Source: a virus (lineage: Duplodnaviria > Heunggongvirae > Uroviricota > Caudoviricetes > Schitoviridae). From it: a stretch of DNA of 64,000 bases. Location: IMG/VR virus record IMGVR_UViG_3300024257_000004. One strand, given 5' to 3'. A program made the position numbers and the translations under genes. Each line of letters begins with the position of its first letter. The stretch's first letter is position 1. Shown here piece by piece: positions 12,604-53,163 of this stretch. The notes beneath the pieces were generated by a model, which ran no database searches, was not told the DNA's origin, and worked only from the letters and a program-made list of their open reading frames with translations.

Positions 12604-13270
12604 TGTTAAGCTCCTTTATTTGTTTCTTCATATCATTGTATAAATACATTGTTGCACATGCATCCACAGCTGCGTATTCAAGCATCTTAGGGTCCATTTT
12701 GTTAGCTTCAGTAAATTCTAGCTCATCGGCAATAGACCATTCACCGTATACGGATCCTGCTAAATGCTTCAGTCCTGTAAGTGCTTTACTAATATCACAG
12801 TGGTTGATTAATGTTTTAGCTAAGATCTGCGTATCTTCATAATTCTTAGGGAATCGACCAGTGAAATATCTAATTAATTTACCATCGTAACCTAAGTTAT
12901 GCCATATTTGCTTAATTTCCGTTGTAACTATCCAGTTAAGTACATACTCGTGAATTTCCGGGTTAAATACTATAACAAATGAATCATATTCAGATGTAGC
13001 AATTGACATGTGAGTTATCTGTATTAATGATGGGTGTGATAACCCGTCTGATGTAGTAACTTGGTTAAGATATACTAATTCCGGATCACGAAAGGGCACA
13101 TCAAGTTCCTCACGGTAATCTTTAGCTGCTACTACTTCCTCCTTAGAGTAAATAGAGGCAGCTTCAAAATCGGCAGCGATTGGTTTATTTGCTGGTAGAT
13201 TAGCCAGGGCTTGTTTGACTTGAGGTAACGTTGTATAGTGTACCCAGTCTACTTTACGAAATGGGTTCAT
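12542..13270 (-). CDS. DNA polymerase 3'-5' exonuclease domain (separate ORF or frameshifted N-terminal part of PolA)
   Basis: 242 aa. The Exo I motif is IAADFEAAS, typical of DnaQ-like proofreading domains. It ends 62 nt inside the next ORF, in a different frame. Confidence 0.65.
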   Translation of the reverse strand: MNPFRKVDWVHYTTLPQVKQALANLPANKPIAADFEAASIYSKEEVVAAKDYREELDVPFRDPELVYLNQVTTSDGLSHPSLIQITHMSIATSEYDSFVIVFNPEIHEYVLNWIVTTEIKQIWHNLGYDGKLIRYFTGRFPKNYEDTQILAKTLINHCDISKALTGLKHLAGSVYGEWSIADELEFTEANKMDPKMLEYAAVDACATMYLYNDMKKQIKELNNEQPTEPALDVSTTTGPFSI

Positions 13271-20798: not shown

Positions 20799-21995
20799 TT
20801 AATGTATATAGTCACTTACTGTGTCCAGTAATTTAGACTGATTAGCTAATACTTTAGTTTCTAGTAACTCTTTCTCTTTCTTAGTTAATTTGTGATTAGC
20901 TTCATTGTAATTACCTAAGAATTTCTCTATTAGGATTTGTTGTCCTGCTGTAATAGCTATACCCTCTTGAGATGACATAACAAATTTAATGTAAATCTGC
21001 CCTGATAAGTATCCGATAAAGTTCTGAGCTGTTACATCGTTACTATTGTGGTTAATTAAATCAATTAAATATGCCGCATCAGTTGGTGTATGGATATAGT
21101 TAACTATATAAGCCCATAGTACTTTATCAGTTTCCTTAAGCTGTGAGATTGATTGCATAGCTTGTGATTTAACTACGTTATCGAAGTCAATCTTATTGAT
21201 ATAAGTAACATGTTCATACAGCTTTTTAGATACGTCGTTAGATATTTTCATCCTAGCTAACATTTCTATGTTATCGTTTACAAACTCTGTAGAGTGTAAT
21301 CCGATTTCGTTAGCTAAGTACGTCCAAGACCTAGGAGATTCAAATTGTTCTAAGTCAGTAGATTCTGTACCAACTATGTCACCTTGATTAGCTTTTAAGT
21401 ACGATGCTACATAGTGATGTAATCTGTTACCAAAATTATCAAACCAGTAATTGAAATCGAAATCAATCTTCATAAGAGAGAACCTGTTCTTGATAGGAGC
21501 TTCTAGTCCTTCAAATCCTGCTTCTTCTGAATCATTCATTGCGCCCATGATGGCCACTTTAGACGATAATTTGTAATTACCTAGCTTACGCTCACCTAAT
21601 AGTGAATATAGGTAAGGCTCAACTGGTTTAGGAATTTTATGTAAATCGTCAAGGAATAAAATTGCCCCATTACCAGTTTCTGCTGCGTTATTACAGTTAG
21701 CTATAAGTTCAGGTACAGACCATTGAGTTGATTGAGAATCAGTTACACCTGCAGTAGAATACTTATCCATATTAGGCGCTGGTTTGAACGTAGGAATCCC
21801 TGATGCGGATTCAATAGTTGCCTCTGGTAATGAGATATGAATAACTGACATATTAAGTTCTTTACCTAATGCGTACATAGATTGTGTTTTACCGATTCCT
21901 GGAGGTCCTACTAGGCATACTCCGCCACCGATATCAGCTCCTGCAAGCTGACCTGAGATATTTGTTTTTAGTACTGTTGTAATTAATGGGTTCAT
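20799..21995 (-). CDS. AAA+ ATPase, MoxR/CobS-like (AAA_5)
   Basis: 398 aa with Walker A LVGPPGIGKTQ and Walker B ILFLDDLH, plus a sensor region. Confidence 0.7.
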   Translation of the reverse strand: MNPLITTVLKTNISGQLAGADIGGGVCLVGPPGIGKTQSMYALGKELNMSVIHISLPEATIESASGIPTFKPAPNMDKYSTAGVTDSQSTQWSVPELIANCNNAAETGNGAILFLDDLHKIPKPVEPYLYSLLGERKLGNYKLSSKVAIMGAMNDSEEAGFEGLEAPIKNRFSLMKIDFDFNYWFDNFGNRLHHYVASYLKANQGDIVGTESTDLEQFESPRSWTYLANEIGLHSTEFVNDNIEMLARMKISNDVSKKLYEHVTYINKIDFDNVVKSQAMQSISQLKETDKVLWAYIVNYIHTPTDAAYLIDLINHNSNDVTAQNFIGYLSGQIYIKFVMSSQEGIAITAGQQILIEKFLGNYNEANHKLTKKEKELLETKVLANQSKLLDTVSDYIH

Positions 21996-23104
21996 TATTG
22001 TTCCTTGTTTAGTTGTTTCATTGTTGTTTCATAAGCAGAAAACGCGTTGTCTGTAGATATTTTGTCACGTAACTCATCTGATACTAGACCACTGTTAAAG
22101 ACTTCTAGTAGTTGATCTCTAGCGGTAGTTAAGTAATATTTACCATTTGTGTTAGTACTTAAAAGGTAATTAAGTACTACTAGCTTATCCCTTAGCAGGT
22201 TAACCTCTCTATCGTCCAGTTTACTAGGTTTAGTTACACCACTAACGTACATGTAGTCAGTTGAATACACAGCTAGTATAGACGTAGATACCGGTAATTT
22301 GTGGTTACGTGCTACGGAGTTATAAAAGTCATTTGAAAATGCTATGTTATCGCATACATTATTATCATCAACATCCGCTAATGCAGTTTCATACCATATA
22401 TATTTAAAAGGTAAGTCTGATTGATTAGTGCAGTCTATTGATCTACAATCCCTAATAGTGCTAATAAGGTGATTAGTTTTTGTCCTAGCCTTATTCCAAA
22501 TTAGGTTCATGTATTTAACTTTAATGTCAAGTTCTGCTTGAGTGTAGTTATTATTTATATACGTTGATGGTAATATTTCTGACATGTAGTTAACCGCATC
22601 TACGCCTGTAATATACTTCTTCGACTTAAGAAAGTTTTCGAAAACTGTATAACTAAACATGTCAAGTTTGAGATTAGGTTTAGTAGCATTAAATTCTAGC
22701 TCTCTACGCCTAGATCGTTCTTTTTTAAGTACAGAGGTTGTTGCGTAGTCTTTAAGTTTGTCGTCAGGAATAGCTTTTATTATACCCTCAAGTTTACCGG
22801 AAAATCCCCATCCCCCTGGAGGATGTGTGATAAATTCCTTACAATAGTCTTCTGCTAAGTCGTAAACTGGCGTCTTGGCTGACTGTGTGATATTTAGCCA
22901 TACTCGGGAGCTACTTGCGTACACACCCATAACAAATAATTTAGTAGCCAAATCCGGTAATTTATCAAATTCTGCAGAGACTACGTGTTCTTTATGGTAG
23001 GATTGGTTATTATCATTAAATTCGTAAAATTCTTGTATTTGACTTGAGTTAGTGTTATTTACTACCCAGTTAGCTAGTTCTTGTACTGTTTCAAATTGTG
23101 CCAT
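21995..23104 (-). CDS. Hypothetical protein
   Basis: 369-aa ORF whose start overlaps the stop of the AAA+ gene (ATGA). Confidence 0.5.
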   Translation of the reverse strand: MAQFETVQELANWVVNNTNSSQIQEFYEFNDNNQSYHKEHVVSAEFDKLPDLATKLFVMGVYASSSRVWLNITQSAKTPVYDLAEDYCKEFITHPPGGWGFSGKLEGIIKAIPDDKLKDYATTSVLKKERSRRRELEFNATKPNLKLDMFSYTVFENFLKSKKYITGVDAVNYMSEILPSTYINNNYTQAELDIKVKYMNLIWNKARTKTNHLISTIRDCRSIDCTNQSDLPFKYIWYETALADVDDNNVCDNIAFSNDFYNSVARNHKLPVSTSILAVYSTDYMYVSGVTKPSKLDDREVNLLRDKLVVLNYLLSTNTNGKYYLTTARDQLLEVFNSGLVSDELRDKISTDNAFSAYETTMKQLNKEQ

Positions 23105-33046: not shown

Positions 33047-33454
33047 CTACTTTTTCATCGCTTGTAAGTCTTTAATAGACATTTCAGCTAATTGTGCATT
33101 TTTCTTCTTTTCAATAAGATCATCTATCATATCGTTATGTGAAGTATTTGCTTTAGCTGACTGAATTGCTAATTTATCGTCTTGTTTAGTTTTAATAATA
33201 TCTACAACTAAATTAAGTTGTAGTTCAGCTAATGTATCTGGTTCAGTTGTGTCTAGAAAGGATTTCTTTTTTGACTGCTTAAACTGCGAATGAAGCTCCA
33301 TAGCAATATCATTTAGTTGTGCTGGAGTTAATTGCCATAGCTGTTGTACGTTAAGTACACCTTTAGTTGATTGGAATGTCCAATTGTGTTTTGTTGCTTC
33401 TTTGAATAAATTCATATTATTTCCTTTGTTATTTGTGGTTGCCAATTTGGCCAT
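33047..33454 (-). CDS. Hypothetical protein
   Basis: 135-aa ORF. Confidence 0.45.
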   Translation of the reverse strand: MAKLATTNNKGNNMNLFKEATKHNWTFQSTKGVLNVQQLWQLTPAQLNDIAMELHSQFKQSKKKSFLDTTEPDTLAELQLNLVVDIIKTKQDDKLAIQSAKANTSHNDMIDDLIEKKKNAQLAEMSIKDLQAMKK

Positions 33455-33458
33455 AAGG

Positions 33459-33540
33459 TTACCATATCAGGAATCGAACCTGAGACATCTTGCTTGTTTG
33501 CATTTTAAGGCAAGCGCTCTACCGACTGAGCTATACGGTA
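33459..33540 (-). tRNA. tRNA, type II (long variable arm), Leu-like with UAA in the anticodon loop; anticodon stem-loop irregular (4-bp stem, 8-nt loop)
   Basis: The minus-strand RNA reads UACCGUA-UA-GCUC-AGUCGGUA-GAGC-G-CUUGC-CUUAAAAU-GCAA-(14-nt variable)-UCAGG-UUCGAUU-CCUGA-UAUGGUA-A. The acceptor, D-arm and T-arm are canonical. Confidence 0.6.
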
Positions 33541-33546
33541 ATAGGT

Positions 33547-33692
33547 TACTCGAGTAGGGATTGAACCTACGGCCTTCATCGTGTAATGGTAAATCTGCTA
33601 GGATTTGAACCTAGAACCCCTAGACTAAGCTAGTGCTCTAACCAGTTGAGCTACAGATTTTGGATGACGCTCTACCACTGAGCTACCGAGTA
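33547..33692 (-). tRNA. tRNA-like gene interrupted in its anticodon loop by a complete second tRNA gene (outer gene; probable pseudo-tRNA or processed composite)
   Basis: The 5' half reads UACUCGG-UA-GCUC-AGUGGUA-GAGC-G-UCAUC-CA. The 3' half reads UUACAC-GAUGA-AGGCC-GUAGG-UUCAAUC-CCUAC-UCGAGUA-A. The acceptor halves (UACUCGG/UCGAGUA) and anticodon-stem halves (UCAUC/GAUGA) are complementary across a 73-nt insert. Confidence 0.5.
33588..33660 (-). tRNA. tRNA nested inside the anticodon loop of the outer tRNA-like gene (encoded CCA; anticodon arm noncanonical)
   Basis: The RNA reads AAAUCUG-UA-GCUC-AACUGGUUA-GAGC-...-CUAGG-UUCAAAU-CCUAG-CAGAUUU-A-CCA. The acceptor stem, D-arm and T-arm are perfect. 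The anticodon region (ACUAG-CUUAGU-CUAGG) has only a 6-nt loop. Confidence 0.5.
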
Positions 33693-33708: not shown

Positions 33709-35703
33709 CTAAAATTGTACGTTATATAGTTTTGTTGAATTAGGGTTAGTCACTTTAAGTACTACCTCGTTATTCACTGTAGAGCTGAAGCCTAGTCCAG
33801 CTAATTGTTCATTCGCTGCTTCTACTTTCATTTTAGATGCTAATACTTCGAATACTTTACGGTGTTCATTAAGATTAGCGGCTAAGAATTCGTTATAGAA
33901 TCCTCTAACTTGATCAGTAGTCTTACAACCATCTAGTATAAACATATAATGCTTATTACCGGTAGAGTTATCTTGCCAATGGTTAGGGGATAACATAATA
34001 TTATTTACTTTAACAAACTGCTGAGTTTTAACACCATAAATAGTTTTAGATGACTGAGAATGGGTTAAGTGGTGTGTAATAGTTATATTTCCAGAAGAAT
34101 CCACAACTAATGTCGCTATCCTAACGTTTTCCTTGTCACTAAGTGGTTTATGGTAACTGTATTCAAATACTTCTCCGTTAAACTCAATTTCTGCTTTGAA
34201 ACCTGATGTGGCTCCTCTAGCTGAAAAGTTATTTACAGCGTATTCATATATACCTTGTTTTACTTTACCGTGAGCATGAACAATGTTCTCTACTGCCACT
34301 TTACTACCCGGGCTAGTAATATCAACATCAAGGTTAAATGCTGCATTACCTTTATTTGAGTATTTGATATGACCGTATGGTGATTTACAGTATAAGTCAA
34401 GATCATCTGGATTATCGTTATCTTCATTCCACATAATAGAACACCTAGTTGCTCCGTCTACTTTACCCCCAAATGACTGCACTAGTTGCTTCATAGAGTC
34501 AGTAACGTTACCATTATAAGACCATGTAAAATTGTTATCCCATTTAAGTAAGTGCTTAGACTCATTAATAGGTGCTATAATATTCATAAAGTTGGATTGG
34601 TGTTTGTTATCAACTAAAGCTTCTATAGATTGTGCATTAGGTAATTGATGTGCTAAGAAATCTTCAATTGAGATATCCTGAGCATTATCAGTAGTTGGTT
34701 TCTTAACTTTTACTTCTTGTTTAAGCAGATCTGCTACACCACCTTTCATTAGAGATTGAACTGCAGTATCAGAGAATAATACGTCATTTACATTAACATC
34801 ATGAATAGTTGCATGTCTTCTAGCTAAAGAAGGCTCAAGGTCAAGTTCAGTGATAGTTTCCATTGCTTTATTAATCATACCCTGTGTAATAAGAGATTTA
34901 CTACGTTTATAGTTCTGAGGAGCTACTTTAGCTTCAAAAGACTTAACTGCAGATACTAAGTCGACTCCATTAGATAGGTCCTCAACTAATGTACCAATAA
35001 CTGTGTTCTTGAACCTAGCTGCTGGGTTATTATAATTTTCAAATCCGAAGAGTCTCTTTGTACCAGAGTACGACAGTGATTTGTTAAATAAATCTTTGAA
35101 CTGTTTAACAGCCTTAAGATGCTCGTCCCCTCTGTACAGAGAATTAGATTCAATAAGTTCAATAACATCATTAAGTGCGGATAGTTTAAACGATTCAATA
35201 GCTGTAGTTAACATAGTTGCTGAAGTAGTTGCTTGTCCAGTAATTTCTCCGACACTAGGGCCTTTAAACAGGCTAGAAGGCATCTCACAGTGGAAATGAT
35301 TCCAGTTAATAACTGAACCGTCAGGTAAGGTTTGTTTAGATTCATATGCTCCGTATTTCTTCTCAGAAGCATAAAATACTGAGTGAATAGGTTTAGTTTT
35401 TACGTAAGCTGACATACTATCTGCTACAGCTTGGTACTCATCATCAACAATTATATCCCATACTGAAATAAAGTTACCATCTTTTACTGCTACTAAATTA
35501 CCTACGTTTCTGATAAAGTTCTTACAACATGAACAATCATGCTTAGTGTTAGTGATGTAGGTAGGATTAGTTCCTTCCGGGAACGCATTAAGGTAATGTT
35601 CTTTAATTTCGTCTCTATCGATATTCATTCTGAATAGTGGGTAGTTATTCGCCATATGGTTGAATTGGTTGTGCACTAATTGTGCGAATTGTTTAAAATT
35701 CAT
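33709..35703 (-). CDS. Hypothetical large protein (664 aa)
   Basis: Long ORF with good codon periodicity and no recognised catalytic motif. It is adjacent to the tRNA-like cluster. Confidence 0.55.
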   Translation of the reverse strand: MNFKQFAQLVHNQFNHMANNYPLFRMNIDRDEIKEHYLNAFPEGTNPTYITNTKHDCSCCKNFIRNVGNLVAVKDGNFISVWDIIVDDEYQAVADSMSAYVKTKPIHSVFYASEKKYGAYESKQTLPDGSVINWNHFHCEMPSSLFKGPSVGEITGQATTSATMLTTAIESFKLSALNDVIELIESNSLYRGDEHLKAVKQFKDLFNKSLSYSGTKRLFGFENYNNPAARFKNTVIGTLVEDLSNGVDLVSAVKSFEAKVAPQNYKRSKSLITQGMINKAMETITELDLEPSLARRHATIHDVNVNDVLFSDTAVQSLMKGGVADLLKQEVKVKKPTTDNAQDISIEDFLAHQLPNAQSIEALVDNKHQSNFMNIIAPINESKHLLKWDNNFTWSYNGNVTDSMKQLVQSFGGKVDGATRCSIMWNEDNDNPDDLDLYCKSPYGHIKYSNKGNAAFNLDVDITSPGSKVAVENIVHAHGKVKQGIYEYAVNNFSARGATSGFKAEIEFNGEVFEYSYHKPLSDKENVRIATLVVDSSGNITITHHLTHSQSSKTIYGVKTQQFVKVNNIMLSPNHWQDNSTGNKHYMFILDGCKTTDQVRGFYNEFLAANLNEHRKVFEVLASKMKVEAANEQLAGLGFSSTVNNEVVLKVTNPNSTKLYNVQF

Positions 35704-36197
35704 AATATTTCCTTTGTAGGTTGGTTTGTGCTAAAATATGGATTAGTTTTAGCCATTTCGATAAGTATTGATCCGTGAATGTTAATAAGTTTATATCCCT
35801 CTTTCAGTGCTGCGTTAACTACTGTCGTGCCGGTATGAGCGTCACTTGCCTTATAGATGAAATAATCCTGGCAAGTAGAAAAGTCCACAGTCGCATCGAT
35901 AGCTGGTACGTAAACTACGTATTCTGAAGGTATAACAAAATTACCTAAGTTATCACTGTAAAGTTCTATCCCAAGTTCGTGGCTGTTTCCTTTTCTAAAT
36001 GGAAACGTTTTGTAAAATTCCTTATTACGTAAAATACGTTTAGTAACTTCTTTTCTGAAGGTATAATCATCAGTATTATCATGTCTATTAATTATACTGA
36101 ATAAAAAATGATCATTTGAAGCTTTCTGTAAGGCATCAAAGAAATCTGGTGTAAACTGCCAGTACTCGTCCTGTTGTTTGTGGATAACTGGTAGCAT
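35700..36197 (-). CDS. Hypothetical protein
   Basis: 165-aa ORF whose start overlaps the upstream stop. Confidence 0.5.
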   Translation of the reverse strand: MLPVIHKQQDEYWQFTPDFFDALQKASNDHFLFSIINRHDNTDDYTFRKEVTKRILRNKEFYKTFPFRKGNSHELGIELYSDNLGNFVIPSEYVVYVPAIDATVDFSTCQDYFIYKASDAHTGTTVVNAALKEGYKLINIHGSILIEMAKTNPYFSTNQPTKEIL

Positions 36198-36922
36198 TAG
36201 ATTCCTCCTTCAGCTGATTCAGATTGATTAATAAGTATTATATTAGTATTAGTAGACTTAGCCAGTTCAATAAGAGCTTGCTTAAGTACTGAATAGTACG
36301 TAGTATTTGTGTAAGCAGTATAAATCTGCACTTTAGTTATGTCTGAAAAACCCAAAGAAAACTTACTGAGCTTAAATAGCTCACGATGGTTGTCTTCTGA
36401 AAGTTTAATTAGTAATTTATTAGGTATATAATTAGATAAATAAGTAATAGAGTGGTTGATCTGTGTACGTTTACGGTCATTAACTAGTGCTTGTACTAGC
36501 CAAGGTTTTGCGTTATGGGTAGTAGGGTTTATACAAACCTCGTGTAGTAATAAGTCACACTCAGTAATGTATGAGTCATACTGTGAAATTAAATGATCAG
36601 ATGCTGTAATACTCGATAAAAATTCATCGTTTGTGTATACGTATGGGTTTACTTCAAACAGTGTACCTTCAGAGTTAATTGGTTTACGGAATTTACTAAA
36701 ACACGTACTAGTGGTAATGTACGTAAAGTTACTGATTTGGTACTTAAGTTCATCGAAGTACAAAGCTAACTTCTGCTGTTCAATGGCTAACTTCTCACGC
36801 TTAAGTTGAGAAATATCGTCAGTAACGGGCAGTTTATTGTAATCCTGTTGAAGGTCAATGTCTGCAATTAAGAGTTTATCTAGTTGTTTTTGCAGTTTAC
36901 GCTGGTTATACCAATCAAACAT
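36197..36922 (-). CDS. Hypothetical protein
   Basis: 241-aa ORF. Confidence 0.5.
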   Translation of the reverse strand: MFDWYNQRKLQKQLDKLLIADIDLQQDYNKLPVTDDISQLKREKLAIEQQKLALYFDELKYQISNFTYITTSTCFSKFRKPINSEGTLFEVNPYVYTNDEFLSSITASDHLISQYDSYITECDLLLHEVCINPTTHNAKPWLVQALVNDRKRTQINHSITYLSNYIPNKLLIKLSEDNHRELFKLSKFSLGFSDITKVQIYTAYTNTTYYSVLKQALIELAKSTNTNIILINQSESAEGGI

Positions 36923-36937
36923 AATAAACTCCTTTAG

Positions 36938-37729
36938 TTAGTTGTTATACTGTTTCGCCAGGTCTAAAATTTTATCATATAACCCTAATTTGAACTCAAA
37001 ATCAGCGTCAATACTTTTAATAGGGAATGACTCTGTGTACTGTTCAATACTAGATACTGGAGCATTCGTCATAGCGTATAAAGCTTTTAGTTCTTCTAAA
37101 GATTCAATAGTAAAAGTCACTTGTACTGGTCTAAACTTATTAGACGGAAGGTTCAATGTATAGTTAACTGGTTCTAGCATAGCTGATGCATATGAGTAAG
37201 CAACTTCGGTAAGCTCTACAGTTAAATCGTCAACTATGTCAACGATTTTATTACTGTGAAAAAGCATACCCCGCAGAAGAGTAGCTTCGCCATACTTAGT
37301 ATCGAGGGTAAGGTTAGGTTTGAGTTGGACTTCATCACCTACGTCATAGTATACCTCGTCAGTAATAACTACAAAGCTGCTATCCGCTATAGTACTAACT
37401 CTTAGTACTACCCCGACATTGTTAGTTACAATGCCATTAGTTACTACATAGGTTTTACCTGGAGTAAAAGTATCCCCCTCCCAGTTTGTACACATAATTA
37501 GATATTGATCAGCTAAGGTAGTAGTCTGGCTAAGAGAGGCAGTCCGTACTTTACGGAAGTGTTTGGAAGTATGCCAACAATTTGTACCGTCATGACTATT
37601 TAACGCTATAGTAATTACAGCCTTATCTATCAGTTTACCTACTAAATAAAAGTTTCCAGCTATAAGGTTACCCTTTGGTGACGATTCTACACGTACTACT
37701 ATGTCTCCTGGTAAAATAGTTTGTCTCAT
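36938..37729 (-). CDS. Hypothetical protein
   Basis: 263-aa ORF. Confidence 0.5.
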   Translation of the reverse strand: MRQTILPGDIVVRVESSPKGNLIAGNFYLVGKLIDKAVITIALNSHDGTNCWHTSKHFRKVRTASLSQTTTLADQYLIMCTNWEGDTFTPGKTYVVTNGIVTNNVGVVLRVSTIADSSFVVITDEVYYDVGDEVQLKPNLTLDTKYGEATLLRGMLFHSNKIVDIVDDLTVELTEVAYSYASAMLEPVNYTLNLPSNKFRPVQVTFTIESLEELKALYAMTNAPVSSIEQYTESFPIKSIDADFEFKLGLYDKILDLAKQYNN

Positions 37730-37731
37730 AA

Positions 37732-38529
37732 TTAGCCCTCAGTTACAGTTGGTTGGATTTTCTCCCAGATTGTATCAATAGTTTTATCAAGATTGAAATC
37801 TGCAATTGATACTGTATTAGTTGGTTCACCAATAGTTGAATTACTGTTGTTTGGATTAAGTAACTCATATGAAGCCCATCCAAATGTACGTTTAGAGTCT
37901 GCAGTAAAGAATAAAAATTCTTCAGGTTTAATAGGCTGTCTGAACTTTTTCAAGCAGTAAGAGTAGCAAGTTGGAGTATCTGTACCAACATGGTTAATTA
38001 CAAATACTCTGATTGATACTAGTCTAGCTAATTCTTTACAAAGTGCGTATAATGCGTAAGCATTGTTCTCAATTACCTTGTCATCTATACTCCATGAGTA
38101 TGATAAGTTAATATAAATATCGTGGAATAGTTTACTGTCATCCATAGCTGTGTTCTGGAAGTAGCAATCACGTTTACCAAGCATAACTCTCTGCTTAGAT
38201 AATACACCTGTGTTCTGAGAAGTAAATGATACATCCCCGTAGAGCATTTTAGTAGTAAATCCTCTAGAGTGCAGTTTATCTTTTACTTCCCTAGCAACGT
38301 CTGCGTATAACGTAGAGTAAGATCCATTCTTTGTTTGGATATCTTTATATTTCTCTTTACCTTCAGTAATAAGATCTATTGCCTCACTGTCAGTAGTCGG
38401 TGTGTTAATAATATCATTCATGAAATCAATAGGATTTTCATAGTGATTATAGATTGTATTATCAACCCATCGTTTATCTAAATGCGCTTCAATAGCTTTA
38501 GCAGGTTTGTTAGTTTGTGTGTTTTTCAT
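37732..38529 (-). CDS. Hypothetical protein
   Basis: 265-aa ORF. Confidence 0.5.
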   Translation of the reverse strand: MKNTQTNKPAKAIEAHLDKRWVDNTIYNHYENPIDFMNDIINTPTTDSEAIDLITEGKEKYKDIQTKNGSYSTLYADVAREVKDKLHSRGFTTKMLYGDVSFTSQNTGVLSKQRVMLGKRDCYFQNTAMDDSKLFHDIYINLSYSWSIDDKVIENNAYALYALCKELARLVSIRVFVINHVGTDTPTCYSYCLKKFRQPIKPEEFLFFTADSKRTFGWASYELLNPNNSNSTIGEPTNTVSIADFNLDKTIDTIWEKIQPTVTEG

Positions 38530-38531
38530 GG

Positions 38532-38882
38532 TTAGTCCTTATTGTTACCAAATTCGGTATAATTATCGTATAGCCAAGCGGCTAATGGTTGTATTGTATG
38601 GATGTTAGTGGAAAATAGTTTATCAAAAGGTCTATCGTTATAAGCATAAATAAAATCACTTTCTACTAAGTCTGTAATACTAAGTACAATAGGAAAAGTA
38701 TAGGGAGTTGCTGTTGCTAAGCTATCACGTAAATTATCAATCAATTTCATCTTTAAGGTATTTACCCATACGTTAATTACATAGTTTTTTATCTTATCGT
38801 AATCGTATTTGTCGTTTATTTGTATACAAAACTTTGGAATACATAGTGTAGCATTAAGGTTATTCATTATGTACACTCCCAC
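38532..38882 (-). CDS. Hypothetical protein, member 3 of a tandem three-gene paralog family
   Basis: 116 aa sharing the pattern W(Y)..(V/H)...LIDxLRD...YP(I/L)...I..........PLA(D)WL..NY with the two adjacent ORFs. Confidence 0.5.
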   Translation of the reverse strand: MGVYIMNNLNATLCIPKFCIQINDKYDYDKIKNYVINVWVNTLKMKLIDNLRDSLATATPYTFPIVLSITDLVESDFIYAYNDRPFDKLFSTNIHTIQPLAAWLYDNYTEFGNNKD

Positions 38883-39205
38883 AGTTTAGCTGTAACACCA
38901 GATTTTCCGTGCAGGTTATAGTTAGTTTGTAACCAGTCAGCTAACGGCATTACACAAGCTATACTTGTATGCAATGAATCAGAAAAGTCTTTATCTTTAG
39001 TGTTATAAGTAAAATCATACTCTTTCATAGCTTCTATTGTAACTAATAAAGGGTAAGTAGAAGTTTTACGCGGATAACCTTTTATTTTATCCCTCAAGTC
39101 AATAAGTCCCCAAGCACAATGAATACTATACCAAATCCGTGAGAGGTAGCTGTTAATTACTTTGTGCTCGTCAGCGTCTGCTATGGTAATAGTAAAATTA
39201 ATCAT
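38867..39205 (-). CDS. Hypothetical protein, member 2 of the tandem paralog family
   Basis: 112 aa with the motifs IWYSIHCAWGLIDLRDKI...YPLLVTIEA...MPLADWLQTNY. Confidence 0.5.
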   Translation of the reverse strand: MINFTITIADADEHKVINSYLSRIWYSIHCAWGLIDLRDKIKGYPRKTSTYPLLVTIEAMKEYDFTYNTKDKDFSDSLHTSIACVMPLADWLQTNYNLHGKSGVTAKLWECT

Positions 39206-39525
39206 TACACACGCTCCGGGTTGTTTTTAGTTAAATTAGCTATTAACCAGTCATTAAACGGAATAAATTCTGGTATAGTTGTAGTAGGTAACGTTGAGAT
39301 ACTGGATACACGACGTAATAAACTTATTTTAAAGTCTACTGGATCTGCTTCTATGTGTAAAGTTATTGGATACTGTAAAGTTCCCTCCGAATCGTAGTAA
39401 AATGCACGTAGTTCATCTATCAGTGAAACGCGTACGTTATACCATAAAAAGCAGAAATACCTATCGTAAAAATCATCAAAGTGTTCTGTATTATTAATAA
39501 TTAAGCTGAACTTAGCAGATTCCAT
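39205..39525 (-). CDS. Hypothetical protein, member 1 of the tandem paralog family
   Basis: 106 aa with the motifs FLWYNVRVSLIDELRAFY...YPITLHIEA...IPFNDWLIANL. Confidence 0.5.
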   Translation of the reverse strand: MESAKFSLIINNTEHFDDFYDRYFCFLWYNVRVSLIDELRAFYYDSEGTLQYPITLHIEADPVDFKISLLRRVSSISTLPTTTIPEFIPFNDWLIANLTKNNPERV

Positions 39526-39528
39526 GGA

Positions 39529-42012
39529 TTATCCTTGTTTGATTTTAGTTTGCCTTACATGTCGTTCTACATCTCTCGGATCCATGTTAGTTAAATCAAT
39601 ACCCTTAACATACTCAAGGCCATACCTAATTGCTAATTGAGCATGAGTTAGGTCATAGTTGATTGTGTGAAATCGTTTAAGTGTTGCTGCATCCATAGGT
39701 TGTCTAGCGTTAAATTTCTCTGAGTACTCATTACCAGTAGTATTAGCTGTACCAATTAATCTGAAATTAGGGTGTACATCAACTAGTGCGTCAGGGAATT
39801 GAAATTGGTCCTTCTTTAATGCATTAAGCACTAGTATAGTGTTAGGATTACAAGCATCAATCTCATCTAAGATAAATACTTTACCGTGCTCTACTGCGTC
39901 TCTAAGTAATGATGAGATATACTCACCAGTAGTGATAGACTTGTAACCTAGTAGGTCATCAACAGTTAACTGAATAGTGCCTTGCTGGATTACTAATTCT
40001 TTATTATGGTGCTTAGCATAATCAATAGCTATAGTAGTTTTACCTGAACCAGATGGCCCTGTAAGTAACGCCCATTCTCTAGCTTCAATGTTCAATTCAT
40101 GGTCAAGAGTAACTAATAACTCGTCGAATACTTCCTTATCTTTAGGTGATAGTTTTTCAACTGGAGTAGAAAATTCATCAGAAATTAATTGGTAGTTATA
40201 AGAATAATCAACTGGTGATATATTAGTCTTATGTAAATGACTAATATCGTCTAAGATATCTCCAGAGCTAGAACACTTGTATTTACCGCAAGAGTATTGT
40301 GTAAGATTGTGAACTACGTCTTTGCTACTGGCTTCAGTAAGTACTCTGTATACTGTATAGTTATCCGCATCAGCTTTATACTCAGCTAAATCTTTTCTAT
40401 TATTTATAACAGACCAAGTGTGTGATGCGTTACACAAAATAATATCTTTTACTTTAACTCTCGCAGACTTGTCAAGTTTAAATATTGGGTATTGTTCACC
40501 TGTGTTATGTTCAGTTTGGGATTGAGGTATTGTTTCACCATCAACAACCACATAAGTATAACTAGATACATCGTAAGGATTAGGTACATTAGGTTCAGGA
40601 TTCTTCCATTTAGCTTTCTCTGGAACCGGTGATAGTTCAACCGGGGCAGGTTTAGCTGGTTGTTGGTTAGATGACGTACCTAGTTCTTCAATTGTGATTT
40701 TCATTTTTGCTCCTGTGTTTATTGTTTTTTCTACCATATCGTAACTTATGTAATATGAATGCTTACTATTATTAGTTTTCCATACGTAAGATTTTATAGT
40801 AATAGTTCTGTTTACTGGTAAAACGTTCTCCATGCTAGCAGTAAAACACGGATCAGTATCTATACACCCATTACGGTCTAATCCGTATACTGCTTCCATA
40901 CTCTCCCATGAAGAAATAACTACTTGTGAGAAATCTTCTGCATCCAGTTCGTGTAGCTCACTAAGTGATTCTATTACAGTACTGTCCTTGGTATGCGCTG
41001 GTATATGTCTGCAGGCTCCAGGTATAATACCATTTTCGTATGATGTGCTAAGACTTATAAGCATAGGAGTTGAGTTAATACGATTGAAATAGCTCGATAG
41101 GTTACCGTAATTGTCTTCTAAATTGTAATTACTACCAGTTTGGTAATAACTTAGTTGAGTTACTACTTCACGTATCTCTTCTTCTGTAGTTACTTTTACC
41201 GCGATACCCAAGTCACATAAGTAGTTGATATTATTAGGCGCAGGTTTAAGTAACGATATTATTTCTGGAACTGTGCATTGACTTACTTCCCAGTTAACAC
41301 TATTGGATAAACTTAAGAAGTTATTTTCTACATTTATATACCGATGTCCAACATAAGATATGCTTCTACTTCCGGATGCTCCCCATTTATAACCATTGTT
41401 AAGTAAAGCTGTTTGTGTTTGATCAAAATTAGTTTCGTCGTTTATAATGATCTGAAATTCTTGGTTTAGGTTTATTGGTTTACTAATTATTGTTTTACTA
41501 GTTAGTGTTTGAATCAATTTCAGGTCCTCTAGTGTTAAATGGATTGTATCTGGGTTTAAACCGTTAAATCTACGATTAGTACGTACTGCACAAGAGGTGT
41601 AGTCGGCAATAGCGTTATTAAGCGCAATACCCTTAATAGTGTTAGCTCCACCCGCATGTCTGTAGCCATGACCTACAAATAGTTGATTATCTAGCTTTGG
41701 TAGCTCTCTAATTAGATCTTTCATTTCAGTAAATTCTGCTTCAGATTCTACTGCTATGTAGCAAGGGTAATTACGATCAAGTAGTTGCTGGATAGTAATT
41801 TCACGATAGCTATCATCCTCGTACGTTGGTACGTTTGTTGAGTATGTTAACTTACTGCTGTTGTCTAAGAATAATCCTACCGGTTTTGTTGAACTATTAA
41901 GTCTTTCTAAAGAAATGTTTGAAAAAGGTTTAACTTTATAAGACATATACTTGTAGATTAAGTTAAATTCCTCTGCAGAGTTACAAAGTATTTTAGTGTT
42001 AGTTAAAGACAT
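39529..42012 (-). CDS. Large protein with C-terminal AAA_5 (MoxR/McrB-like) ATPase domain
   Basis: 827 aa. The C-terminal 200 aa carry Walker A LLTGPSGSGKTT, Walker B VFILDEIDAC and a sensor FRLIGTANT. The N-terminal 600 aa have no recognised domain. Confidence 0.65.
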   Translation of the reverse strand: MSLTNTKILCNSAEEFNLIYKYMSYKVKPFSNISLERLNSSTKPVGLFLDNSSKLTYSTNVPTYEDDSYREITIQQLLDRNYPCYIAVESEAEFTEMKDLIRELPKLDNQLFVGHGYRHAGGANTIKGIALNNAIADYTSCAVRTNRRFNGLNPDTIHLTLEDLKLIQTLTSKTIISKPINLNQEFQIIINDETNFDQTQTALLNNGYKWGASGSRSISYVGHRYINVENNFLSLSNSVNWEVSQCTVPEIISLLKPAPNNINYLCDLGIAVKVTTEEEIREVVTQLSYYQTGSNYNLEDNYGNLSSYFNRINSTPMLISLSTSYENGIIPGACRHIPAHTKDSTVIESLSELHELDAEDFSQVVISSWESMEAVYGLDRNGCIDTDPCFTASMENVLPVNRTITIKSYVWKTNNSKHSYYISYDMVEKTINTGAKMKITIEELGTSSNQQPAKPAPVELSPVPEKAKWKNPEPNVPNPYDVSSYTYVVVDGETIPQSQTEHNTGEQYPIFKLDKSARVKVKDIILCNASHTWSVINNRKDLAEYKADADNYTVYRVLTEASSKDVVHNLTQYSCGKYKCSSSGDILDDISHLHKTNISPVDYSYNYQLISDEFSTPVEKLSPKDKEVFDELLVTLDHELNIEAREWALLTGPSGSGKTTIAIDYAKHHNKELVIQQGTIQLTVDDLLGYKSITTGEYISSLLRDAVEHGKVFILDEIDACNPNTILVLNALKKDQFQFPDALVDVHPNFRLIGTANTTGNEYSEKFNARQPMDAATLKRFHTINYDLTHAQLAIRYGLEYVKGIDLTNMDPRDVERHVRQTKIKQG

Positions 42013-42103: not shown

Positions 42104-42433
42104 CTATAATAGTCCTTCGCCGTTACTAGCTGATGATTCAGATACGATACATCTAAGTACTGCGTTATTCGCAATTAACTTAGCAATCTCTACCTTTCTA
42201 TCTGCTTTCTTAGGTATAGCTGTTACTGCGTCCGTAATTGCTACGTATTCAGCGGTAACTGTTGCCCATTTAGAGTCCTCATCGATTAACATCGATACAG
42301 GCATTTGACCGTAAGCAGTTTCTACTTTTGGTTCAGTTGTAGGCATACCTGCTCCGTATACTGCTACCGCAGCTTCTACGGCTTCTGTTAATTTCTTGAA
42401 ATCTTGTTTCTTAATCGCTTTGCTTAATGACAT
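42104..42433 (-). CDS. Hypothetical protein (start moved to an internal Met with RBS)
   Basis: AAGGAG-N5-ATG at 42433 (MSLSKAIKK...). The longer ORF in the track overlaps the upstream gene by 77 nt. Confidence 0.45.
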   Translation of the reverse strand: MSLSKAIKKQDFKKLTEAVEAAVAVYGAGMPTTEPKVETAYGQMPVSMLIDEDSKWATVTAEYVAITDAVTAIPKKADRKVEIAKLIANNAVLRCIVSESSASNGEGLL

Positions 42434-46219: not shown

Positions 46220-48709
46220 CTAAAATTTAGTAATGTGGTTAAATGATAATCTACTAGAATCCATTCCAGAAATATTCATTTGATCTTGAGTGTAGTCTGC
46301 TGTAAATTCTAGAGAAGAGTTATCAGTTAACCTGTGGTTATAATTTGCATAAACACTAACTTCCTGACCTGCAGGAGCTAGTGAAGTTGATTGAGTTGAA
46401 TTAGATATTGATCCATCCATAGCTCTTGAAGTTGGTACAACTGAAGTAACTGATCCTGAATCAACTCTCATAGGTAGTTTAATACCACCGTTAAAGTTAG
46501 TTGAAACATAAGTTAGTTTAGCTGCCATACCTGTAACTGCAGTAATATCTGTAAACATTCCACCTACTTGTCCATCTGCTGTACCATAAGTTACTGATGC
46601 AGTAAGTCCGTTGTAAGTTGGAGTATCTATAGTTAAATACTGAGTTTTACCTGAGATGCTCATAGCACCCTCACCTGTAGTACCGAATAAGTCATTAGAT
46701 TGAGCATACATGAATTTGAATCCCTTGATACTAGTACCAATAGATGCTGATTGTGATGCTTCGTCTAATCCAATAATAATACTGTTAGAGAATTCCATTT
46801 GCTGGTAAGAATCTGCATCAAATGCATATCCTGTGTTAGCTACTTGTGATGTCATGTCAAGAGTATAACCTCTGTTGAAATCATCAAGAATTAATGTGCT
46901 AGACAGTGCTGATATACTAAGTGCTGATCCAAATGCAGAACTAGATGTAATCTGAGTCTTGCTTGAATCGAATTTAGGTGCTGTAGAAGTAATGTATCCA
47001 CCTGTAGGAATGTTTATAGTACCTACTGGTTGCATAGCTTTTTCAATATTTAATAGACCATGTCCATAAATATCATCAACACCTTCCTCACCTAAGTCAG
47101 TAGTTGTAGCAAACATAATGTCTCTGATTTCTCTACCTACTAGGTAAGGGAATTTCTCAGCTAATAAAGCAAAAGCACCTGTAACAACTGGAGCTGCCAT
47201 AGATGTACCCTGCATATAATTGTAGTCACCCTCATCGTATATTCTATCCGCACTGTCAGATGATTTAGTTGACATAATCATACCGTCAGATCCAGATGCT
47301 GTGAATAAATCTCCACCTGGAGCTACTATGTACCAGTCTTTAGTTATACCTGCAGCGTTAGAATAATACGCAAGAGTGTCATCTGTTGATTTGTTAACTC
47401 CGTTCCCAGAAGTGTAATTAAAGTTATATGAATCACTAATTGATCCAACTGCAATAAATGCTCCGTCATATGTCCCATCAACCATATCAGCATAATCCTC
47501 GAAAGCCGGAAGAGCTGCTGGGTAATTACATTTACCTGTTGAAGTATATCCCATATCCTTACATTGACCAGAATTATTACCTGCTGCAAATATTAATGAT
47601 GTGTCAGCTTTTAAAGCTGTTCTAATATCCTCTACACTACTAGCGTAGTATGATGGACTCCAATAAGTTGTACCTAGTGATAAGTTAGCAACTTTAGCGT
47701 CTTGTTCAGCTGCAAGTTTAATACCTGCAGTGATAGTACTTAATGAACCACTTCCTGAATTGCTTAGTACTTTGATACTAATAATATCAGCATTGTAAGC
47801 AACACCGTGCATACCTTCGTCATCCTTAGTTGCTGCGATAATACCTGCTACGTGCGTACCATGTCCATGAAGATCTTCACCTGAATCGCTATACATAGTA
47901 AATGTACCTTTGATGTTATCAGCAAGATCACTGTGATCAGCATCAATACCTGTATCTAATACAGCTACTTTAACACCTGCCCCTGTCCAACCTTGCTCAT
48001 AAGCAGCTGCAGCGTTAACTTTTTCTAAGAAGTTTCCAGCTTTATATTCTGCTGTGATTGGATTAAGGTCTTTAGTTCCAGGAGTTCCTAGAGTGTAATC
48101 AGGTGTTCCTACTATTCTAACTGGAGCAACTACTGGAATTTCTTTGATAGTGAATTCTTCTTTACCGTATGCAGATCTATCACCTTTATCATCCATTACA
48201 TAGAAAAGGATTTTGTAGTCTGCTACAGGAAGGTCATCAATAGTTTCTTTAGATGAATTAAGTACTTTAAAGTATCTACCATTCTTATACAAGAAACCTC
48301 TGTGTTGTACAATAGTACCGTCACTGTCTGTAGATTGTGATGAGTCTACTGTTACAGATTGACCACTAGTTGTTGCTGTTAGAACTAGTGTAGGTTTAGC
48401 GTTTACAACTTCTTCAGCTCCTGAAGCTGATACTGTTTTCTTTACTAGTTTATATTTTTTACCGTCGCTATCTTTAGCTACCATAAGAAACTTATAAGTT
48501 GCATCAACTAGCGGTAAATAGTCTGTACCAGTTAATTTAGTAAAGTATCTACCATTCTTCCATACGTATATAGTAGTAGAGCCTACTGAACCAGATGTGT
48601 CAATTTTGATACTTGATTCTGTAGTTGATATACTCATATTTGCTACTGCTGCGTAAGATGATGTAGCTAATAAAGCACTAAGTGCTAATAGTTTCAATAA
48701 ATGTTTCAT
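46220..48709 (-). CDS. Secreted subtilisin-like serine protease (peptidase S8) with N-terminal repeats and a beta-rich C-terminal domain ending in Phe (autotransporter-like)
   Basis: A signal peptide (MKHLLKLLALSALLATSSYAAVA) precedes the catalytic triad motifs VAVLDTGID (Asp), HGTHVAGIIA (His) and GTSMAAPVVTGA (Ser). An internal repeat (KNGRYF...) occurs twice. The C-terminus is ...SFNHITKF. Confidence 0.8.
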   Translation of the reverse strand: MKHLLKLLALSALLATSSYAAVANMSISTTESSIKIDTSGSVGSTTIYVWKNGRYFTKLTGTDYLPLVDATYKFLMVAKDSDGKKYKLVKKTVSASGAEEVVNAKPTLVLTATTSGQSVTVDSSQSTDSDGTIVQHRGFLYKNGRYFKVLNSSKETIDDLPVADYKILFYVMDDKGDRSAYGKEEFTIKEIPVVAPVRIVGTPDYTLGTPGTKDLNPITAEYKAGNFLEKVNAAAAYEQGWTGAGVKVAVLDTGIDADHSDLADNIKGTFTMYSDSGEDLHGHGTHVAGIIAATKDDEGMHGVAYNADIISIKVLSNSGSGSLSTITAGIKLAAEQDAKVANLSLGTTYWSPSYYASSVEDIRTALKADTSLIFAAGNNSGQCKDMGYTSTGKCNYPAALPAFEDYADMVDGTYDGAFIAVGSISDSYNFNYTSGNGVNKSTDDTLAYYSNAAGITKDWYIVAPGGDLFTASGSDGMIMSTKSSDSADRIYDEGDYNYMQGTSMAAPVVTGAFALLAEKFPYLVGREIRDIMFATTTDLGEEGVDDIYGHGLLNIEKAMQPVGTINIPTGGYITSTAPKFDSSKTQITSSSAFGSALSISALSSTLILDDFNRGYTLDMTSQVANTGYAFDADSYQQMEFSNSIIIGLDEASQSASIGTSIKGFKFMYAQSNDLFGTTGEGAMSISGKTQYLTIDTPTYNGLTASVTYGTADGQVGGMFTDITAVTGMAAKLTYVSTNFNGGIKLPMRVDSGSVTSVVPTSRAMDGSISNSTQSTSLAPAGQEVSVYANYNHRLTDNSSLEFTADYTQDQMNISGMDSSRLSFNHITKF

Positions 48710-51234: not shown

Positions 51235-53163
51235 TTATTTAAGTGCCATAGGGTCACACTTAAAGTCAGTTGTTAGAGGGTTAATTTGTTTACTAAGTTT
51301 TTGCCATTCCTTCATAGCATTACTGTTAAGTCTGATAGATTTGAAGTAATTATTCAGAATAGCTTCTCTATCTGCGTATACATCTTCTATTTTAGTTGCG
51401 TATAGTTCTCTAGTTTGTTGCGCATGTACAGGAGATACTATAAATGCGTCGTGTATAGTTAAAGCCCAAGGTAAAGCTTCACCGATTGAGTCAGCAATTT
51501 GACTATCAAGGTTATGTATTAGTAGTGTTTGGAAGTATCTTTTGAACTGTTTTAAGTCTGGTACTTTATGCGTATGTGTATGCGCTATGGCAAGTACAGA
51601 TCTATCAGCAGTAGAGTAGATAGGGTATCTTCTAGTGTAGTCTCCTACATTCTTGAATTTATTACAAGATATAGTAAATTCTTCATTCCAAATCTTTACA
51701 TCCATACTTTGAGATGGTTGTGCGTTATCAATTACCATGTTCTTGAAGTCATTAGCTACTGCGTAGAAGCCGTTCTTTACTTCGAAAGACATTAATGCTA
51801 ACTGCTTAGTAGTGTAGTCTAATCCTTTCTTATCCCAAAGAGTTTTAACTGTCTGAGATGAACCGTATAATGTAGGTGTAGCGTACGACTTAACTTGTAA
51901 CCTACTGATATTGTCTAAATGCCAAGGATCAGTGATACCAGTGTTAGTTAATACGTTAGTTGCTTCCATATAAGGTGTGTGGTTAAGTAATACACCAGTA
52001 AGTTGAAGCATAGATGCTGATGCGTCTAACTCAATAGGTACGTAAGAGTAGAAAGGTTCATCAGTATTTCTACTAAAGAATGCATCTAGCTCGTCATACA
52101 ATCTTTCTAGCCAAATTAGCTCGTGTAATTCACTTCTGTCATGGTCAGCTCGTGCTATTTCAGCCGTAACTTCATCGTCAGTCATGAACGAAGTTAATAC
52201 TTCTTGACAGTCTAGCTTAGGTAATTCTCTGTTTTTATACATTTCTTTACCGATTCTAGCCTTATCCTGTTCACTATCGCAGAATTTAGTACCATTTAGT
52301 TCAGCAATAAATAAGTAGATTGCATGTGTATACGCTCTTGCTTCTTTGAATGAGTTTGTTGGTACTAACGTAGCTGGATTAATAAGTAATGCTCTCGCAT
52401 CTTTGAATCCAATAGGGTTAAATACTTTCTTAAGTGCGTTAGATATAGCTCTACCTCTAGAGTCGTTGTAGTTAGCTCCAAGTGTAAACTCTTCTTCTGA
52501 GTACATATGGTAGTCAACGATATCTTTAGATATAGAATTATAATCTGCTCCATCTTCTACTAGTTCGTGTATTTCAGCAACTTTTCTCATAGATTTAGTT
52601 ACATTCATAACTATTGCATCATAGTACTTATATAAGTAATCTGTGTCATACTTAAAAGAGTTAGTTCCTGTAGTAGCGAACCCGTTTCTTGTAAGTCCAG
52701 TGTCTAACACTCTACCGTTTTGCTTAGTTAGGTTAGCGGCTGCGATATTTGGTTTATACTCTAGTTTATACTTGTTAAACTTAATAGCTTTTCTGATATT
52801 AGTAATAACTTCTTGAGGTACTACTTCTAGTAGTTTAGCTTCTACTAACTCTATTTCAGCCCAGTGTCTAGCTGGTACTACAATAGAGTTAATCCAACCT
52901 GCATCACTTAAATTCTTAAGGAATTGGTTGAATACTTTAGGATCTTCAAATTTATCATACCAGTAAGTAGTAGATATTGTAGATTTATTCTTAAGGTAGT
53001 TAGTCCATAGGTTCTTCCACATACTCTCCATTAGTTGTGTTGGTTCTTTGATTAAGTCTAATACTTCTACCGGAAAGCTTAGTTTACCTTGCTCTAGTTC
53101 TAATCTGAACTGCACTCTCTGCGCTAATCTTTGTTTTACTGTTGATATTACATTTACTGACAT
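51235..53163 (-). CDS. Single-subunit DNA-dependent RNA polymerase (T7-like / N4 RNAPII-like), 642 aa
   Basis: Motif A is LDASASMLQ (T7 DGSCSGIQH). Motif B is VKSYATPTLYGSS (T7 KRSVMTLAYGS). Motif C is LTIHDAFIV (T7 LIHDSFGT). The size is close to the fused N4 RNAPII p4 plus p7 (673 aa). Confidence 0.75.
   Translation of the reverse strand: MSVNVISTVKQRLAQRVQFRLELEQGKLSFPVEVLDLIKEPTQLMESMWKNLWTNYLKNKSTISTTYWYDKFEDPKVFNQFLKNLSDAGWINSIVVPARHWAEIELVEAKLLEVVPQEVITNIRKAIKFNKYKLEYKPNIAAANLTKQNGRVLDTGLTRNGFATTGTNSFKYDTDYLYKYYDAIVMNVTKSMRKVAEIHELVEDGADYNSISKDIVDYHMYSEEEFTLGANYNDSRGRAISNALKKVFNPIGFKDARALLINPATLVPTNSFKEARAYTHAIYLFIAELNGTKFCDSEQDKARIGKEMYKNRELPKLDCQEVLTSFMTDDEVTAEIARADHDRSELHELIWLERLYDELDAFFSRNTDEPFYSYVPIELDASASMLQLTGVLLNHTPYMEATNVLTNTGITDPWHLDNISRLQVKSYATPTLYGSSQTVKTLWDKKGLDYTTKQLALMSFEVKNGFYAVANDFKNMVIDNAQPSQSMDVKIWNEEFTISCNKFKNVGDYTRRYPIYSTADRSVLAIAHTHTHKVPDLKQFKRYFQTLLIHNLDSQIADSIGEALPWALTIHDAFIVSPVHAQQTRELYATKIEDVYADREAILNNYFKSIRLNSNAMKEWQKLSKQINPLTTDFKCDPMALK

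Follow-up and report, generated by a model that had tools for sequence, protein, structure and literature searches.

A conserved phage-specific module of a MoxR-class ATPase and a probable DUF7192 protein is split by an ancient gene triplication in a Schitoviridae phage

What kind of locus is formed by the eight co-directional open reading frames (ORFs) on the minus strand at positions 35700 to 42012 of a Schitoviridae phage genome (IMG/VR virus record IMGVR_UViG_3300024257_000004; the whole 64,000-nucleotide stretch analyzed here is called the window)? A preliminary description had read it as four unknown ORFs, three recently triplicated small ORFs, and a large protein with a C-terminal ATPase module, possibly marking a counter-defense locus. 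The eight ORFs are present where it placed them, both in the ORF listing (165, 241, 263, 265, 116/111, 112, 106, and 827 amino acids, here abbreviated aa) and in gene calls made independently on some 20 metagenome contigs from this phage (≥99.5% nucleotide identity), which gave the same genes. We refer to the first four by their lengths as p165, p241, p263, and p265, and to the three small genes, together the triplet, as paralogs C, B, and A. Comparison with related loci showed a region of unequal parts rather than one even run of unknown genes, with a conserved module, specific to phages, as its backbone: the small gene p109, the ATPase gene, and p265. The block as first drawn left out p109, which lies upstream of it, as well as the partnership of the ATPase and p265, which the triplet splits.

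Probes from the conserved ATPase core, and then from p265, led us to 16 related uncultured-phage loci, found in IMG/VR, in metagenomes, and in one metagenome-assembled genome (MAG). The p109 homolog, the ATPase, and the p265 homolog were directly adjacent, in that order, in every locus that extended far enough; p109 homologs stood directly upstream of the ATPase in nine loci (e.g., in locus L018, E = 6e-19), and a p265 homolog stood directly downstream of it in all 16, the place where the triplet intervenes in the window. None of the 16 loci carried the triplet, p263, p241, p165, or an adjacent DUF8224 gene. Because the ATPase and p265 homologs adjoin directly in these loci, the comparison shows the triplet to be an insertion between the two genes that is specific to this marine phage lineage; a relative 78 to 87% identical to the window lineage had the same order as the window, triplet included. 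The best-conserved component of the module was p265, with 55 to 61% identity across the 16 loci and many invariant polar residues, versus 39 to 55% for the ATPase core. The four ORFs first listed as equally unknown are thus of two kinds, p265 being the most conserved module member and the other three being lineage restricted.

The 827-aa protein is, by its motifs and profile matches, a MoxR-class AAA+ ATPase. Its residues 649 to 781 matched Pfam AAA_5 (E = 5.8e-17, 62.4 bits, gathering cutoff 22), and the protein matched phrog_249 (labeled "porphyrin biosynthesis," CobS-like; E = 4e-29). The Walker A (GPSGSGKT, residues 652 to 659), Walker B (ILDE, residues 714 to 717), and sensor-1 (GTANT) motifs were intact, and G652 to K658, D716, E717, and N757 were invariant among the ATPase relatives (alignment A2), so that the C-terminal AAA_5/MoxR-type module had been recognized correctly. 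The closest solved structures by sequence were NorQ (E = 6e-5), CbbQ (8e-5), and CobS (9e-5), whose E values are indistinguishable. Against PADLOC, the ATPase gave generic P-loop matches only (E > 1e-3). An orthology with N4 gp24 or AD45-P1 gp052 was considered and rejected; only the Walker A residues align.

What had been described as a 600-aa domain of unknown function in front of this core consists of several modules. The ATPase relatives span 529 to 860 aa, those of the 16 related loci 545 to 860 aa, and have only residues ~465 to 827 in common; P0010 (741 aa) and P0011 (529 aa), for example, are true relatives that share this part and differ in their N termini. A stretch of about 70 residues (aa 364 to 434) also exists as stand-alone proteins of 80 to 110 aa (P0012 to P0023), for which a Pfam scan found no family, and an iterative profile of a second stretch (module X) recovered it, at domain E values of 1e-17 to 1e-24, twice in P0010 and once in the ATPase of L018. 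These comparisons show a mosaic N terminus, with variable modules up to residue ~460 followed by a family-conserved region at residues ~465 to 640. An exhaustive HMMER search with residues 1 to 620 returned 14 weak matches only, P0010 and P0011 among them, and a word-indexed search and an IMG/VR scan with the full protein or its N terminus returned the self-match only. The ~70-aa domain (VKIKTWE.ME.EYGLD..G.I...FT..ME..LP..R.I) is widespread in small proteins from metagenomes, where it occurs singly or in tandem; in P0021, it is fused to DUF3310.

Next, we looked into the identity of p265, which had no match in Pfam or PHROG at standard thresholds and none in a tblastn search against cultured phages. 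Scanning all 14 members of its family gave recurring weak, collinear matches to DUF7192 (PF23822) and to phrog_1909, the latter matched by 6 of the 14 members (best E = 5e-4). An hhalign comparison of the family profile with the DUF7192 protein of an Alteromonas phage gave a probability of 94.9% (E = 4.8e-8); the alignment ran through 172 collinear columns and had motifs in common. A comparison with a three-sequence DUF7192 alignment (~18% identity) was uninformative. On the basis of the collinear weak matches, the hhalign result, and the pairing of phrog_249 ATPases with DUF7192 proteins in cultured phages, we regard p265 as most likely a divergent DUF7192/phrog_1909 protein. A reading of p265 as a degenerate vWA protein, with its NLSYS taken as a decayed MIDAS, was rejected (hhalign against a canonical MIDAS vWA profile built from related loci, 0.1%; no Pfam VWA signal).

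Three unrelated phages in culture encode a phrog_249 ATPase with a DUF7192/phrog_1909 protein of 254 to 281 aa after it, matching the window in both the families and their order: Alteromonas phage vB_AmeP_PT11-V19 (genes 46/45), Gordonia phage Sephiroth (gp135/134), and Lactobacillus phage 3-521 (genes 0035/0033). The pair is also found in Staphylococcus herelleviruses, and the ATPase and the DUF7192 gene each match 236 records of Staphylococcus phages. By these matches, the ATPase and DUF7192 genes are a widespread, fixed, and uncharacterized phage gene pair. The window differs from the known pairs in several respects. Their ATPases are 253 to 383 aa long and lack the long modular N terminus of the 827-aa protein, they have no upstream p109, their DUF7192 members are not too divergent for the Pfam DUF7192 threshold as p265 is, and the triplet separates the two genes in the window lineage only. 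The pair itself was thus already catalogued (PHROG 249 and 1909; Pfam DUF7192), and what is new is the modular N terminus, the extra p109, and the inserted paralogs. A search of 185,579 bacterial and archaeal species genomes for the module family gave one match, on a 5-kb MAG contig; since the family is essentially absent from these genomes, we regard the module as a phage module and not a cellular defense system.

The three inserted proteins align over their full lengths, and pairwise BLASTP was significant for every pair (C and B, E = 2e-13 with 29% identity; B and A, 2e-4; C and A, 2e-4). Profile-profile comparison of their orthogroups agreed (B-C, E = 6.4e-13; A-C, 7.9e-6; A-B, 2.3e-5), with 20 column-shuffled control profiles giving E ≥ 0.09 throughout, and these alignments identify A, B, and C as true paralogs, as first proposed. 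They are not the product of a recent tandem triplication. We infer that the triplication is old because the identity between paralogs is low (22 to 34%), their synonymous sites are saturated (proportion of synonymous differences [pS], 0.66 to 0.85), and the three orthogroups A, B, and C each occur in at least three lineages. The profile database search behind the latter returned eight proteins only, all metagenomic. Orthologs in the diverged lineage L006 were 78 to 87% identical, with ratios of nonsynonymous to synonymous substitution rates (dN/dS) of 0.47, 0.32, and 0.57 and no gene-wide positive selection, and among near-identical strains the triplet proteins were 100% identical. These results show an ancient triplication and an orphan family kept under moderate purifying selection. 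The window holds exactly three copies, with no fourth paralog elsewhere in it, and an IMG/VR search found no member of the family. An AlphaFold2 model of paralog B had a marginal predicted local distance difference test (pLDDT) score of 65 and suggested a small alpha/beta fold, for which comparison with BFVD and PDB folds gave nothing below E = 1. Two other origins were tried and rejected, namely, that the triplet consists of free-standing copies of ATPase module X (hhalign, 0.6%) and that it is related to p109, p263, p241, p165, or other neighbors (hhalign, ≤0.9%).

We then compared what lies downstream of p265. In 10 related loci, the ORF after the p265 homolog encodes a compact, 250- to 285-aa retron-type reverse transcriptase (RT), with a vWA gene intervening in L035; PADLOC retron RT models matched these proteins with E values as low as 2e-39, and Pfam RVT_1 did so with E ~ 1e-22. 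At their N termini, the RTs of L018 and L028 share a module with the N-terminal region of the neighboring ATPase. In three loci (L032, L034, and L035), a canonical stand-alone vWA protein directly follows the p265 homolog, and in L035 the RT comes next; the vWA proteins scored 24.3 to 27.5 bits against Pfam VWA (cutoff 23.8) and have the full MIDAS motif (DASSS / GxTA / QTDG). Searching the whole window with the relatives' RT (tblastn and hmmsearch) gave E > 0.5 and no RT, and no vWA was detectable in the block by Pfam or, for p265, p263, p241, and p165, by hhalign. Gene order shows that p263, p241, and p165 occupy the place of the relatives' RT and/or vWA; the possibility that one of the three is itself a cryptic vWA or RT was rejected after negative searches. 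The p263 protein has a weak match to phrog_18492 (E = 5e-4), and p165 varies among strains, with 94.6 to 97% aa identity in strain contigs L015 to L017, where neighboring genes are ~100% identical. PADLOC models matched none of p265, p109, paralog B, p263, p241, and p165, and p109 had no match in Pfam or PHROG either.

The RT invites comparison with retrons, which combine an RT, an msr/msd noncoding RNA, and an effector: the RT of the module relatives fits PADLOC retron RT models and lies downstream of p265. Unlike retrons, the window lacks an RT, scanning the block and the related loci with Rfam brought up no msr/msd RNA (and, within the block, no other family), and the elements lie in lytic-type phage contigs and not in bacterial defense islands. 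Some of the related loci are interrupted: the ATPase gene is split by ~1.1 kb in L033 (1197-3976), the RT is split by ~1 kb in L029 (2509-4300) and truncated in L024 (4787-5167), and in L018 an I-HmuI/NUMOD-type homing endonuclease (12122-12919) lies between the p265 homolog and the RT. The split ATPase and RT genes, together with this endonuclease, suggest that mobile endonucleases target the module.

What might the module do? On balance, and by only a little, we favor an ATP-driven remodeling motor with a DUF7192 adaptor. The idea follows from the nearest solved cores, NorQ, CbbQ, and CobS, all of which act with an adaptor subunit; in CobS-CobT(-CobN), NorQ-NorD, and CbbQ-CbbO, as in the window, the partner is encoded beside the motor, and in CobS-CobT the adaptor shaft is inserted into the ATPase ring (bioRxiv 10.64898/2026.07.21.739949). 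The canonical MIDAS vWA protein that follows the p265 homolog in three related loci also speaks for this kind of motor. By analogy, the ATPase would assemble as a hexameric ring, as its solved relatives do, and would use ATP hydrolysis to change the structure or activity of a target that is either a protein or a nucleoprotein. The p265 protein would be the dedicated adaptor, in the role that the vWA partners CobT, NorD, and CbbO have in the characterized motors, and the variable N-terminal modules would pick the target or binding partner. The triplet and the three ORFans p263, p241, and p165 may be accessory, lineage-specific clients or regulators of the motor. Gene neighborhoods, with helicase and primase genes in cultured phages and the RT in relatives, point weakly to a target in nucleic-acid metabolism.

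Several observations weigh against this motor-adaptor proposal. The window partner is not a vWA protein as in the CobS, NorQ, and CbbQ systems; with p265 undetectable as a vWA (hhalign, 0.1%), the adaptor analogy rests on gene position. A client corresponding to CobN, NorB, or Rubisco is missing, and CobS, NorQ, and CbbQ lack the long variable N terminus of the window ATPase. Scored directly against DUF7192, p265 reached 14.6 bits, below the Pfam gathering cutoff of 27, its single-sequence AlphaFold2 model was unusable (pLDDT, 43), and neither the p265 profile nor a bona fide DUF7192 protein brought up a relative when searched by sequence against PDB. In the library searched, no paper was found on what DUF7192 or the herellevirus ATPase does, and none mentions DUF7192. 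Finally, the accessory role of the paralogs is read purely from their position.

Four other readings have to be set beside the motor-adaptor proposal. If the block were a counter-defense or host-takeover locus, the triplet and ORFans would be diversified immunity inhibitors and the ATPase would belong to an anti-defense or inter-phage conflict machine. This would fit the lineage-specific orphans (the triplet, p263, p241, and p165) in a nonstructural, nonreplication region, the local variation hotspot at p165, and the ties of the module in relatives to a retron-type RT and a vWA protein, since MoxR-vWA plus RT combinations have been described for conflict systems (PMC7159879). We nevertheless think it unlikely: no block protein matched PADLOC, the triplication is old, the dN/dS values of 0.32 to 0.57 give no sign of gene-wide positive selection, the paralogs do not vary among strains, and entire phage groups (such as the Staphylococcus herelleviruses) carry the core pair as a fixed feature, which resembles a housekeeping rather than an accessory role. 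The step first taken from a recent expansion to a counter-defense locus is lost with the recent expansion itself. A replication or nucleic-acid accessory, in which a polymerase, primase, helicase, or RT complex on phage DNA or RNA would be loaded or remodeled by the motor and its DUF7192 partner, strikes us as quite improbable. The pair sits between helicase and primase in Alteromonas phage PT11-V19 and after the helicase, before nucleotide-salvage genes, in Lactobacillus phage 3-521; an RT follows in the 10 related loci, with the ATPase-type N-terminal module in L018 and L028; and, as a secondary match in PHROG, the ATPase shows similarity to clamp loaders (E = 6e-9). That similarity, however, is generic to AAA+ proteins, the rest of the support is gene neighborhood, and the window block has no RT and lies apart from the replication genes at 3 to 14 kb. 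Homology to virion or replication proteins was detected for no block gene, in agreement with the initial view that neither role is apparent.

MoxR-vWA pairs have been proposed as virion-assembly chaperones in Acidianus two-tailed virus and group 2.2 jumbo phages (PMC7824862), and three related loci do carry a vWA protein; for the window, with no structural genes nearby and no detectable vWA, and with the pair lying among early and replication genes in cultured phages, we consider such a chaperone very improbable. Least credible to us is an auxiliary metabolic gene, a viral CobS that would hijack host CobN for cobalamin synthesis. The phrog_249 label, the presence of CobS among the nearest solved structures, and the viral cobST hypothesis (PMC8651126) speak for it. 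Yet the partner is DUF7192 and not CobT, the window has neither a vWA/MIDAS protein nor a CobN gene, the similarity to CobS (9e-5) is no better than that to NorQ (6e-5) or CbbQ (8e-5), the 640-aa N terminus of the ATPase is non-CobS, and the ATPase-DUF7192 pair is fixed in Staphylococcus phages. As far as homology and distribution can tell, the cobalt-chelatase label is contradicted by the identity of the partner and the distribution of the family.

The coordinates of the block and of the genes compared with it are collected in Table 1. Neighboring genes in the block overlap by up to 4 nt or are separated by up to 15 nt. Because the genes abut or overlap and a search of the coding strand across the block found no convincing terminator, they are probably co-transcribed as one operon. 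For paralog C, the contig gene calls take the ATG at 38867, which overlaps the stop codon of paralog B by 1 nt; the GTG at 38882, which would give 116 aa, is the less likely start.

Table 1. Features of the module region in the window and of the RT and vWA genes in related loci
Feature	Position	Strand	Description
p109	42104..42433	-	Small conserved protein, first module gene; beyond the block as first described
827-aa ATPase	39529..42012	-	Modular MoxR-class (CobS/NorQ/CbbQ-like) AAA+; AAA_5, phrog_249
AAA_5 P-loop core (aa 649-781)	39670..40068	-	Pfam AAA_5; Walker A at 40036-40059
Pre-AAA region (aa ~465-640)	40093..40620	-	Family-conserved; starts with WKNPxP motif
~70-aa KIKTWE..ME..YGLD domain (ATPase aa 364-434)	40711..40923	-	Matches stand-alone small proteins P0012-P0023
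Module X (ATPase aa 186-232)	41317..41457	-	Iterative profile matches in P0010 and L018 ATPase
Paralog A, 106 aa	39205..39525	-	Most divergent of the triplet; paralogy by BLASTP and profiles
Paralog B, 112 aa	38867..39205	-	Paralogy by BLASTP and profiles; marginal AlphaFold2 model
Paralog C, 111 aa from ATG at 38867	38532..38867	-	Paralogy by BLASTP and profiles
p265	37732..38529	-	Probable divergent DUF7192/phrog_1909 protein; conserved ATPase partner
p263	36938..37729	-	Lineage-specific ORFan; no homologs in related loci
p241	36197..36922	-	Lineage-specific ORFan; no homologs in related loci
p165	35700..36197	-	Lineage-specific ORFan; most strain-variable gene
RT in related loci	L018 12888-13970; L022 2734-3588; L025 2990-3754; L028 1632-2960; L030 847-1704; L035 1385-2173		
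RT also in L024, L026, L027, L029			Downstream of p265 homolog
vWA protein	L034 8779-9372; L032 4781-5389; L035 792-1361		One sub-lineage

A nucleotide search of the window against 50,697 phage records gave no match. Among cultured phages, the N4-like Alteromonas phages AD45-P1 to P4 are the nearest relatives. The window is syntenic with AD45-P1 in the replication genes and in a pair formed by a DUF8224 gene and a small-protein gene, with nothing shared within about 36 to 51 kb. In AD45-P1, the vWA-metallopeptidase gp051 and the MoxR ATPase gp052, a pair of the N4-like gp25/gp24 kind, lie directly upstream of the DUF8224 gene, the position that the block takes in the window; the N4 gp24-type ATPase has an AAA_5 domain like the window ATPase but is not its ortholog. 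A second AAA_5 ATPase of the window (20799-21995, 398 aa) is distantly like AD45-P1 gp052 and the N4 gp24 type (E = 4e-5) and is flanked by a 478-aa protein (19327-20763) and a 369-aa protein (21995-23104) without Pfam matches; this region may be the phage's N4-type ATPase module.

The 664-aa DUF8224/COG4676 protein of the window (phrog_1735; 33709-35703) occurs in 549 phage records from many host genera and forms a conserved pair with a ~135-aa protein (33047-33454); in Salmonella phage Arash, the pair is labeled "structural protein." Between the two genes lie two strong tRNA matches, at 33459-33540 and 33590-33660 (minus strand; Rfam, 61.9 and 56.2 bits), to which ARAGORN could assign no anticodon. 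The predicted anticodon loop of the former has 8 nt (CUUAAAAU), with a long, Leu-like variable arm, and that of the latter has 6 nt. Upstream of the block, the window encodes an 829-aa subtilase (Peptidase_S8, E = 1e-54; 46220-48709) and a 642-aa protein (51235-53163) that is a single ORF; its matches in AD45 phages fall in three pieces over several annotated ORFs, among which is a GIY-YIG nuclease gene.

For annotation, these results mean that the ATPase-DUF7192 pair is mislabeled as "porphyrin biosynthesis" and that a CobS or porphyrin label should not be passed on to these genes. The pair is fixed in the medically relevant Staphylococcus kayviruses and recurs in marine, actinobacterial, and lactic-acid-bacteria phages. 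The window and its relatives add that the pair can be extended by a third conserved gene, that its motor can take on a hypervariable modular N terminus, and that an RT or vWA gene goes with the module in most relatives; the domain swaps, the natural RT-less variants, and the inserted paralogs provide handles on the function of the module. The RT-linked relatives are a more interesting lead than the window itself. It is conceivable, if quite doubtful, that p109, the modular ATPase, DUF7192, an optional vWA, and the retron-type RT constitute an undescribed RT-dependent system of lytic marine phages and, separately, that the ATPase-DUF7192 pair is a new type of AAA+ motor-adaptor machine. In such a system, the swappable modules, fused to the RT in L018 and L028, would couple target sensing to RT activity, and the window lineage, a natural variant, would have dropped the RT and acquired the triplet and the three ORFans, which would serve as other outputs or adaptors.

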